Positions 21,143-23,394 of a stretch of 64,000 nt of DNA are shown here, in pieces. Location: NCBI GenBank assembly GCA_036867785.1, contig CP145416.1, positions 930,001 to 994,000 of the forward strand, read 5' to 3'. Below the pieces are notes generated by a model, which was not told the origin of the DNA, did not search any database, and worked only from the letters and a program-made list of their open reading frames with translations. The translations under genes were made by a program, and so were the position numbers. This DNA comes from Plasmodiophora brassicae (Eukaryota). The first letter of the stretch is position 1. Each line of letters starts with the position of its first letter.

Positions 21143-23394
21143 ATGATGAACGCGATCACCATCATGGTTGGTTTCCCGATCTGGCGTCAACAACGGCCGT
21201 GGCTGATGCTTGTCGTTGCAGATGTTCGCTGTCGCTGTCGCTCATACTGTTGCCGATGTCGTGCACCTCGTACCGGGGGACGACGATGCCATCATGGTCA
21301 ATATAAGCGTGGATGAGGCGCGCCAGTCGGGCTTACTACTCGCCATGATTGTGGACTGCAAGCTCGGCGGCCCCAGGATTATACCGCTCCCGAGAGTCGA
21401 TCGTGCCACGCTGCTGCGCGTACGTTTGTAGAGCGAAAAACCTCATTGGAGCGATGCTTGTTGACTGACAATGTGGTGGCACAGATCGCCGACTTCATGC
21501 GCACACAGAACGGGTCGGCTTGGAAGGTCGTCGTTTCTGATGGCGAACTGGTTGCGCTGCTTCACGCAGCCCACTACCTGGACATGCCCGACCTGGTGTC
21601 GGTGGCGGCTCGCGCCGTCTCGCAACGCATTCCGACGGATCAGCTCGTCGAGCGCAGCCACACCTTGTAGGTCTCGGGTTGATCTATCAATTAGAAGTCT
21701 GTTTGCCATCGAGCTTTTCGTGAATCAGAGGCAATGCGCTTCACATGGTGGTCCGGTCCGAGGCGGAGTCGCGACTGCGCCACGTCGTGGACGACATCCG
21801 CAGCAATGGCGGTGTCGTCACGAACGGTTCCTACGAGGTCATGGGTTTGTTGCTTGATCATGGCGACTGGCAGCTGGGCAGGAGCAAACTTGAGGACGCC
21901 ATCGAGAACGGCGAGTCTGGCTTGGCCGAAGCGCTTATCTCGTTGATGCCGATCCGGGCGATCGATGCCCTCAAGATCGGTGCCGATTCGGCGCTGATAT
22001 GGACGGTAGAGGCCCACCTGGAGGATGGCATATGCCGCACCAAGATCGCCGTCGCCCTGATCGGACGCATGAGCGAGGCCGCCATCATCGCCCAGGACGT
22101 CGACGGCGAGACGGCGCTGCACCTGGCGGCTTGGTGTGGCCCCACCGAGATCGCCGTCGCCCTAATCGGACGCATGAGCGACGCCGCCATCAACGCCCAG
22201 AACAACAACGGCGAGACGGCGCTGCACCTGGCGGCTGACAGTGGCCAAACCGAAATCGCCGTCGCCCTAATCGGACGCATGAGCGAGCCGGCCATCACCG
22301 CCAAGAATATCTACGGCGAGACGGTGCTGCACCTGGCGGCTCGCTATGGCCAAACCGAAATCGCCGTCGCCCTGATCGGACGCATCGGCGAGGCCGCCAG
22401 CAACGCCCAGGACCACAACGGCGAGACGGTGCTGCACCTGGCGGCTCGCAATGGCCAAACCAAAATCGCCGTCGCCCTAAGCGGACGCATGAGCGAGGCC
22501 GCCATCAACGCCCAGAACCTCTACGGCGAGACGGCGCTGCACCTGGCGACTCGCGATGGCCGCACCGAGATCGCCGTCGCCCTAAGCGGACTCATGAGCG
22601 AGGCCGCCATCAACGCCCAGAACAACCGCGGCCAGACGGCGCTGCACCTGGCGGCTGACGATGGCCGCACCGAGATCGCCGTCGCCCTAATCGGACGCAT
22701 GAGCGAGGCCGCCATCATCGCCCAGGACATCGACGGCAAGACGGCGCTGCACCTGGCGGCTTGGTATGGCCACACCGAGATCGCCGTCGCCCTAATCGGA
22801 CGCATGAGCGAGGCCGCCATCAACGCCCAGAACAACCGCGGCCAGACGGCGCTGCACCTGGCGGCTTGCAATGGCCGCACCGAGATCGCCGTCGCCCTAA
22901 TCGGACGCATGAGCGAGCCGGCCATCATCGCCCAGAGTATCTACGGCGACACGGCGCTGCACCTGGCGGCTTGGTGTGGCCGCACCGAGATCGCCGTCGC
23001 CCTAAGCGGACGAATGAGCGAGGCCACCATCAACGCCCAGAACAACCGCGGCCAGACGGTGCTGCACCTGGCGGCTTGCTATGGCCACACCGAGATCGCC
23101 GTCGCCCTAATCGGACGCATGAGCGAGGCCGCCATAAACGCCCAGAGCATCGACGGCGAGACGGCGCTGCACCGGGCGGCTCGGAATGGCCGCACCGAGT
23201 TCGCCATCGCCCTAATCGGACGCATGAGCGAGGCCGCCATCAAGTCCCAGAACAACAAGGGCAAGACGGCGCTGCACCTGGCGGCCGTCCACACGACGAT
23301 TGCCATCGCCATCAATCGGCGCCTAAGCAACGCGGCCTCCGGCGCCCATGACCTCATCGACATGGCGAACGACACGACCACTGGGCCGGCGTAG
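21143..23394 (+). CDS. Secreted SKP1/BTB-like + 12 ankyrin-repeat protein (effector candidate); 3 introns (21167-21221, about 21420-21484, about 21667-21728)
   Basis: Spliced N-terminus MMNAITIM|MFAVAVAHTVA-DVV is signal-peptide-like. SKP1/POZ-like 'ARQSGLLLAMI...IPLPRVDRATLLR|IADFM...LVALLHAAHYLDMPDL'. Twelve G(E/Q/K/D)T(A/V)LH ankyrin motifs. Confidence 0.9.
22040..23300 (+). repeat. 105-bp coding tandem repeat (35-aa ankyrin unit), about 12 copies
   Basis: 'acggcgctgcacctggcggct...accgagatcgccgtcgccctaatcggacgcatgagcgaggccgccatc' recurs every 105 nt. Confidence 0.97.

Follow-up and report, generated by a model that had tools for sequence, protein, structure and literature searches.

What kind of gene contains a dozen almost identical ankyrin repeats that differ from one another at a few fixed positions, and what might such variation be for? 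The question is raised by a tandem array in a 64,000-nucleotide stretch of Plasmodiophora brassicae DNA (GenBank assembly GCA_036867785.1, contig CP145416.1, positions 930,001 to 994,000 of the forward strand), which we refer to as the window and number from its first base. An initial annotation of the window described a fixed ankyrin scaffold with hypervariable binding-face residues, and proposed that recombination shuffles the units into a modular target-recognition code. Our analysis shows that the array is part of an expressed four-exon gene on the + strand, coding from 21143 or 21222 to 23394 (689 amino acids (aa) from the first ATG), and that its product joins a probable Skp1/POZ-like domain, at the N-terminus, to an ankyrin solenoid of some 15 repeats, 11-12 of which are near-identical 35-aa units. 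The locus is best explained overall, with a probability of roughly 0.6, as an expressed ankyrin gene with a Skp1/POZ-like head, whose array evolves in the manner of the fungal repeats of 'high internal conservation' (HIC) and whose product might act as a variable receptor, either coupled to a ubiquitin ligase or oligomerising.

Tandem Repeats Finder reports a single array at 22015-23285 (period 105, 12.1 copies, 86% matches, no indels, score 1798), the sole long-period array within the window. Phasing by reading frame resolves it into twelve units of 35 codons, all in frame and inside a + strand open reading frame (ORF) at 21745-23394:

22042-23301, + strand: array of twelve 105-bp (35-aa) ankyrin units, placed by the repeat finder, the reading frame, Pfam and unit alignments
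22087-22089, 22096-22104, 22108-22110, 22132-22137 and 22141-22143, + strand: hypervariable codons of unit 1, recurring every 105 bases

Units 1-11 share 79-95% of their DNA sequence, and unit 12, the last five codons of which are degenerate, is 72-81% identical to the others. At the protein level, each unit is 0.74-0.89 identical to the consensus (mean 0.82), mean pairwise identity is 0.74, and the scaffold alone stands at 0.88. The repeat finder and the frame phasing bear out the twelve near-identical units, differing at few positions, of the initial annotation, and the variable residues that it listed are exact throughout: the hairpin triplets (DVD, NNN, NIY, DHN, NLY, NNR, DID, NNR, SIY, NNR, SID, NNK), the diresidues after LHLAA (WC, DS, RY, RN, RD, DD, WY, CN, WC, CY, RN) and the residue after G (P/Q/Q/Q/R/R/H/R/R/H/R in unit order).

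With the unit written as starting E-I-A-V-A-L, the variable columns are 16, 19, 20, 21, 23, 31, 32 and 34. Units 1-11 depart from their consensus at 93 bases in all, 66 of them (71%) in these eight of the 35 codons, a share that none of 20000 random placements matched. Between units, DNA identity is 94.3% outside the eight codons and 65% inside them, protein identity is 88% in the scaffold and 26% at the variable positions, and each of the twelve units carries a unique eight-residue signature. Codon differences from the consensus run 51:1 replacement to silent in the eight codons, compared with 19:6 in the scaffold (Fisher p = 0.004, counted by cells), so that the variation is neither evenly spread nor mostly synonymous. 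Mean pairwise diversity is 0.434 at the 16 non-degenerate sites of the hypervariable codons, about nine times the 0.046 of the 18 four-fold sites (Mann-Whitney p = 2e-5), although the numbers of sites are small. This nine-fold excess at the eight codons exceeds what relaxed constraint can give. The non-degenerate sites of the scaffold (n = 52, diversity 0.057) show no difference from the four-fold sites (p = 0.69), and such uniformity of the scaffold, to the same degree at silent as at replacement sites, is expected after recent amplification or homogenisation. Repeat-induced point (RIP)-like mutation was ruled out as the source of the variation, with 41 transitions and 52 transversions.

The later units had also been described as alternating with a 210-bp period. 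Units 6, 8 and 10, which carry NNR-GQT, are 92-95% alike, but similarity at a lag of two units gives p = 0.07 and the repeat finder has no 210-bp row, so this part of the description stands only for the three units themselves. At a lag of six the similarity is at least as strong (p = 0.03 over shuffled unit order): units 1 and 7 are 94% alike, units 2 and 8 91% and units 3 and 9 90%, and a proline in column 13 is confined to units 3 and 9. This pattern suggests an old duplication of a six-unit block beside the two-unit alternation, and from the sequence duplications of both block sizes are plausible candidates, neither of them established. The proposal that recombination has shuffled the units is itself plausible, given a scaffold that is 94% identical in DNA with equal silent and replacement diversity; the code that was attached to it, modelled on the repeats of transcription activator-like effectors (TALEs), finds no support (see below).

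We asked where in the protein the eight positions fall. Pfam places the units in Ank (PF00023; E 4.9e-65, 11 stretches) and Ank_2 (PF12796; E 2e-70). A single-sequence AlphaFold2 (AF2) model of the exon-4 product (predicted local distance difference test (pLDDT) 87.2, predicted template modelling score (pTM) 0.75) repeats strictly every 35 residues as two helices, a short helix and a loop. Its top match in Foldseek is a designed ankyrin repeat protein (DARPin) of twelve repeats (6mol_A, E 1.5e-19), followed by other DARPin fusions and ankyrin-B/R (E 1e-19 to 1e-15). Profile, solenoid model and structural match thus agree with the ankyrin identity originally given to the units. In HMMER alignments to DARPin chains there is a two-residue gap after the residues LIG; the two extra residues at this place, after helix 2, explain a unit of 35 aa instead of 33. 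The same alignment equates columns 19-21 with DARPin positions 1-3, column 23 with 5, columns 31-32 with 13-14, column 34 with 16, column 16 with 31 and the glutamine of column 18 with 33. In the model, loop residues 120-128 correspond to columns 16-24 and the helix at 129-136 to columns 25-32. The alignment and the model together place the eight variable positions in the hairpin loop, the end of the inner helix and the turn that follows, as predicted locations.

The initial annotation had equated the variable sites with those randomised in DARPins. This is correct for five of the six library positions, which are reportedly 2, 3, 5, 13, 14 and 33 (Binz et al. 2003); the equivalent of position 33 is glutamine in 11 of the 12 units and hence not variable, and the equivalents of positions 1, 16 and 31 vary in addition. 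The array thus shares with DARPins a consensus-like scaffold and variation at positions 2, 3, 5, 13 and 14. It differs from these designed 33-aa repeats with six randomised positions in being natural, in its 35-aa unit, in its degenerate natural caps and in its extra N-terminal domain. The randomisation of defined surface positions in DARPin libraries is described in part of PMC8683736.

The sampled words of 20900-23600 are present, to at least half, in 20 of 24 sequencing runs, which come from 9 studies. Contigs of four of these runs were compared with the window: X2 and X8, which are DNA, and X15 and X16, from two studies, which we take as RNA-derived from their intron joints and a poly(A) end and not from the run records (labelled guessed RNA). 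Together with the reading frames they give the following gene model:

21143-21166, + strand: exon 1, 8 codons; X15 and X16 contigs join 21166 to 21222
21167-21221, + strand: intron 1, 55 nt, GT..AG; joint in one contig each of X15 and X16 and in none of the DNA runs X2 and X8
21222-21419, + strand: exon 2, 66 aa, N-terminal half of the Skp1/POZ-like domain, with a hydrophobic N-terminus
21420-21484, + strand: intron 2, 65 nt, GT..AG; joint in X15 and X16 contigs, none in X2 and X8
21485-21666, + strand: exon 3, 60 aa and 2 bases, C-terminal half of the Skp1/POZ-like domain
21667-21728, + strand: intron 3, 62 nt, GT..AG; joint in X15 and X16 contigs, none in X2 and X8
21729-22041, + strand: first part of exon 4, encoding an N-terminal cap region that the AF2 model shows as about three degenerate ankyrin-like helix pairs
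23302-23394, + strand: C-terminal tail, 30 aa, to the end of the ORF, with the TAG stop at 23392-23394
23395-23497, + strand: 3' untranslated region to the poly(A) site, where an X15 contig has a loose end of 26 A directly behind 23497

The two downstream introns had been predicted from the reading frames beforehand and were then seen in the X15 and X16 contigs. Once joined, the exons total 2070 bases, an open frame of 689 codons closed by a single stop. Position 21143 is the first in-frame ATG after a stop at 20993-20995, and the ATG at 21222 is an alternative start. The start of exon 4 has no Pfam match; the AF2 model gives it helices at residues 2-25, 32-43, 47-59, 63-72 and 88-99 (pLDDT 74-87). 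In the tail, residues 537-554 of the model fall below a pLDDT of 50. The intron-bearing contigs (7108 bases in X15, 4037 bases in X16) extend upstream past 20900 into a gene for a DEAH-type helicase that ends at about 20880, which reflects either overlapping transcripts or read-through.

What does the array carry at its N-terminus? Exons 2 and 3 were scored separately against Pfam, each alone, and each gives one family: Skp1_POZ for exon 2 (E 0.12, 13.0 bits against a cut-off of 21.9, profile positions 3-48 of 62) and BTB for exon 3 (E 0.11, 13.2 bits against a cut-off of 20.5, profile positions 76-107 of 110). Both sub-threshold matches are to families of the POZ fold and they are colinear, the N-terminal half lying in exon 2 and the C-terminal half in exon 3. 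When exon 3 was compared with PDB sequences at E <= 10, Skp1 accounted for 22 of the 24 matches (E 0.66-1.1; the aligned region is roughly Skp1 87-120); the other two are designed proteins and score better. In the Atlas, the first matches of exon 2 are Skp1_POZ clusters at 0.94 (23 of the 30 matches in the set), and exon 3 finds Skp1 (PF01466) clusters at 0.88-0.89, which we treat as a lead only. Judged from these alignments, the head probably has a Skp1/POZ-like fold. Set beside the POZ-fold cullin adaptors Skp1 and Elongin C, exon 2 resembles Skp1_POZ and exon 3 the region around Skp1 residues 87-120, in the right order; the C-terminal part of Skp1 beyond that region is replaced by ankyrin repeats in this product. 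In Skp1 the C-terminal helices bind the F-box. The beginning of the head is hydrophobic (21143-21290; Kyte-Doolittle 19-mer mean of 1.97 over residues 3-22, with no lysine or arginine in residues 1-22), and this segment may serve as a signal peptide or an anchor, or may be no more than the beginning of the POZ fold.

Searches for relatives returned ankyrin proteins of a general kind. The exon-4 protein had 2526 matches at E <= 0.001 among 8000 scored candidates, and the best 120 listed are 25-50% identical to it and all generic ankyrin proteins; its residues 1-104 had no match at E <= 0.001 among 196 candidates. Among shorter proteins there were 80 matches at E <= 1e-10 in 2219 candidates (26-45% identity), with no near-identical fragment from another assembly among those candidates. 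Protein searches of the word-indexed collection found no close relative, and an exact search of metagenome contigs with a 32-base scaffold pattern gave 0 matches. Several unrelated ankyrin matches have the same look, with a uniform scaffold and variable hairpin and helix-end residues (the kinase-ankyrin protein P0004, and also P0002 and P0066), and natural ankyrin proteins thus show such an arrangement not infrequently.

Conserved repeats with hypervariable binding positions are a hallmark of fungal allorecognition or immune-like receptors, and have so far been tied mainly to the architecture of NOD-like receptors (NLRs). In the sections of Dyrka et al. (2014; PMC4986451) that concern ankyrin repeats, internal identity reaches 85% or more in 10% of the ankyrin domains from fungal NLR candidates. 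Highly conserved ankyrin repeats are rare elsewhere (1.2% in dikarya), 60-70% of them occurring in NLR-like proteins and the remainder being left uncharacterised in those sections. Two Podospora ankyrin loci are described there as having between 7 and more than 16 repeats depending on the isolate, and all but one of five positively selected positions are concave-face residues of the inner helices and the hairpin/loop. The novelty implied by the initial annotation is accordingly lost, since natural near-identical fungal ankyrin repeats with selected concave-face positions and polymorphic repeat number are already in that paper (PMC4986451). Its HIC criterion is an internal identity of at least 85% over at least 100 aa; by our own calculation, which is not T-REKS, the array has 86% matches in DNA and a mean amino-acid consensus identity of 0.82, and its hypervariable positions are few, located on the binding face by alignment. 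With the HIC ankyrin proteins of Podospora anserina (Pa_3_8560, Pa_2_8180) our array shares near-identical tandem units, few hypervariable positions in the hairpin/loop and inner helix, and a concerted evolution that is deduced in both cases. In contrast to their NLR architecture, the product described here has a Skp1/POZ-like head and no NACHT/NB-ARC or known NLR effector domain, and its unit is 35 aa long with two extra residues after helix 2. Pfam detected no NACHT/NB-ARC domain in any exon, nor in the long ORFs of the window that were scanned (57 of 205, those up to 38.6 kb). The WD40 repeats of the HNWD genes het-e, het-d and het-r of P. anserina are proposed to evolve in the same regime, by repeat shuffling and diversifying selection at few surface positions, and pose the same problem to short-read assembly, but they form a beta-propeller within an NLR architecture, unlike the ankyrin array. 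For HNWD, an allorecognition function has been demonstrated genetically (Paoletti 2007 and Chevanne 2010, as cited in PMC4986451; PMC12222747).

The array probably belongs to the HIC kind; what is new is its non-NLR architecture, the probable Skp1-like head, the 35-aa unit and the orphan status of an expressed gene. Ligase adaptors that evolve rapidly include the MATH-BTB and F-box families of nematodes and plants, and the ankyrin/F-box and ankyrin/PRANC proteins of intracellular bacteria and poxviruses. As in these, a ligase-docking module would here be joined to a fast-evolving target-binding domain. They diversify by expansion of gene families and dock through BTB-Cul3 or F-box-Skp1, whereas in the present case it is the repeats within a single gene that differ from one another, and the part that docks would be Skp1-like itself. 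No Skp1-ankyrin fusion in fungi was found in the literature by title and abstract, a limited search and weak evidence of absence. If true, an expressed non-NLR example with a head like a ligase adaptor would extend the HIC regime to another output module, and it would offer a compact, testable case of one gene, twelve units and eight positions.

We envisage the following mechanism. Duplication of units, gene conversion or unequal crossing-over probably keeps the scaffold uniform while diversifying selection keeps the eight positions of each unit different. With these positions at the hairpin loop and inner-helix end and in the adjoining inter-helix turn, each unit would probably add a different patch to one long protein-binding groove. 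The head might then couple a partner bound in the groove to a cullin-type ubiquitin ligase, or might simply oligomerise the protein, and the whole could serve as a variable substrate receptor for fast-changing partners such as non-self, host or competitor proteins. More ambitiously, the gene may stand for a non-NLR branch of fungal variable-receptor biology, in which one gene holds a recombining repertoire of patches and a Skp1-like head bypasses the F-box to reach a cullin ligase, for the destruction of non-self or, if the protein is secreted, the redirection of a host ligase; we put this extension forward as a doubtful one.

Several observations weigh against our interpretation. When distinct codon types are counted once, the replacement excess (26:1 versus 14:4) is not significant (p = 0.14), and pairwise Nei-Gojobori pN/pS in the hypervariable codons is just 1.56, on 3.8 synonymous sites, with 0.84 elsewhere. 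Diversity at four-fold sites may be depressed by a strong codon bias (G+C at third positions (GC3) of 0.87). Surface exposure of the eight positions is read from the DARPin alignment, and the consensus identity of 0.82 lies slightly below the 0.85 of Dyrka et al. As for the head, neither Pfam match attains the gathering score with the exons scored singly, and the PDB sequence search with exon 2 gave no relevant match (a phage capsid at E 0.079 was rejected). Against 1.84 billion representatives, exon 2 had two matches, its own sequence as a 69-aa ORF and one that we judge spurious, a bacterial repeat protein of 5483 aa to which it aligns in 23 stretches. Finally, the array pieces listed for X2 and X8 match the window without differences, so that they show no variation between isolates.

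Could the array be a by-product with no role in recognition, young and recently amplified, its eight positions being unconstrained surface residues? The equal diversity of non-degenerate scaffold and four-fold sites (0.057 and 0.046, p = 0.69) would agree with this, as it shows no trace of purifying selection after the latest homogenisation; so would the failure of the protein searches to find an orthologue and the weak significance when changes are counted by independent events (p = 0.14). Unconstrained sites should, however, match the silent-site level and not exceed it nine-fold, and 51:1 replacement changes with 12 unique signatures in 12 units, in a gene that is spliced, polyadenylated and open over 689 codons, make such a by-product rather improbable. 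To a similar degree we doubt that the protein is an effector, secreted or delivered to a host, in which an N-terminal signal peptide precedes a Skp1-like domain that mimics, or plugs into, the host Skp1-cullin-F-box (SCF)/cullin machinery and an ankyrin groove that chooses host targets. Ankyrin/F-box mimics of ligase components exist in bacteria and viruses, and the first 22 residues have the hydrophobicity (19-mer mean of 1.97) and the absence of lysine and arginine noted above. Four of the 20 runs with the stretch are labelled plant metagenome (one study) and the RNA-derived runs are labelled with three other organisms, so that the source organism may live with plants. Yet the segment has no positively charged n-region, its start codon and transcription start are not fixed, and it may be the first strand region of a POZ fold.

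In the TALE-like code of the initial annotation, the variable residues of each unit would stand for a single element of a linear target, and recombination would rewrite the whole. In its favour, the array is modular by unit, and every unit has a variable diresidue at the same fixed place. TALE repeats are likewise tandem units of 33-35 aa differing at fixed positions. They have, however, a different fold, a DNA target and a proven code of one repeat to one base, none of which is seen in our array. Pfam gave ankyrin families only, for a solenoid that is not the TALE superhelix; each unit has eight variable positions in two patches and not one diresidue; and we saw no periodic target, no nucleic-acid-binding feature and no rule of one repeat to one target unit. 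Known ankyrin complexes bind through a continuous groove (section 17 of PMC4986451, citing co-crystal reviews), ankyrin solenoids present one continuous surface, and we regard a code of this type as extremely improbable.

A different concern is that the unit count and unit order seen in the window, which are only as reliable as the assembly, might partly be an artefact, a possibility compatible with any of the other explanations. Long contigs of X2 and X8 end at 22087-22089 and restart at 23214, at the edges of the array, and the interior is found as pieces of just 73-133 bases. Repeats of this kind are recovered unreliably and mis-assembled by short reads, as stated in the part of Ament-Velasquez et al. 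(2025; PMC12222747) that names the regime 'high internal conservation'. The pieces listed for X2 and X8 are nevertheless identical to the window across parts of nine units (2, 3, 4, 5, 7, 8, 9, 10 and 11), and the frame is intact through all twelve, so we think a partial artefact unlikely; array stretches with no listed contig were not counted as evidence. For genome work, the lesson is that such arrays break short-read assemblies, and that searches of the word-indexed protein collection did not find this gene, though the representatives' library has a 69-aa piece identical to exon 2.

One contig of X15 (102 bases, 22313-22414) has 8 differences from the window, including the codons of the RY diresidue of unit 3, and a contig of the reference form occurs alongside it. 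We considered whether it is another unit that has been mis-placed, but its central differences recur in no other register of the window. This one contig hints that the X15 organism may carry a unit that is absent from the window.

Elsewhere in the window, the Pfam scan of long ORFs, up to 38.6 kb, found eukaryotic housekeeping genes of an ordinary kind: arginyl-tRNA synthetase, the DEAH-type helicase upstream of the ankyrin gene, GRASP, a RecQ-type helicase and lipoxygenase pieces. The lipoxygenase-like pieces lie at 9409-9879 (- strand) and 27434-29294 (- strand), which suggests two genes, or a gene and a fragment. Downstream of the ankyrin gene, 23600-26000 has 63-64% G+C and overlapping long ORFs on both strands (for example 24073-24924 on the + strand, 24103-24927 on the - strand) with no Pfam match. 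A short tandem repeat (25-28 bases, 2.4-4.4 copies) occupies 37525-37645, on the 5' side of an ORF for a DEAD/RecQ-type helicase. The highest G+C of the window, 67-69%, is reached at 54000-59000, a region with very long stop-free frames at 54386-56785 (- strand), 56790-58838 (+ strand) and 56889-58805 (- strand).

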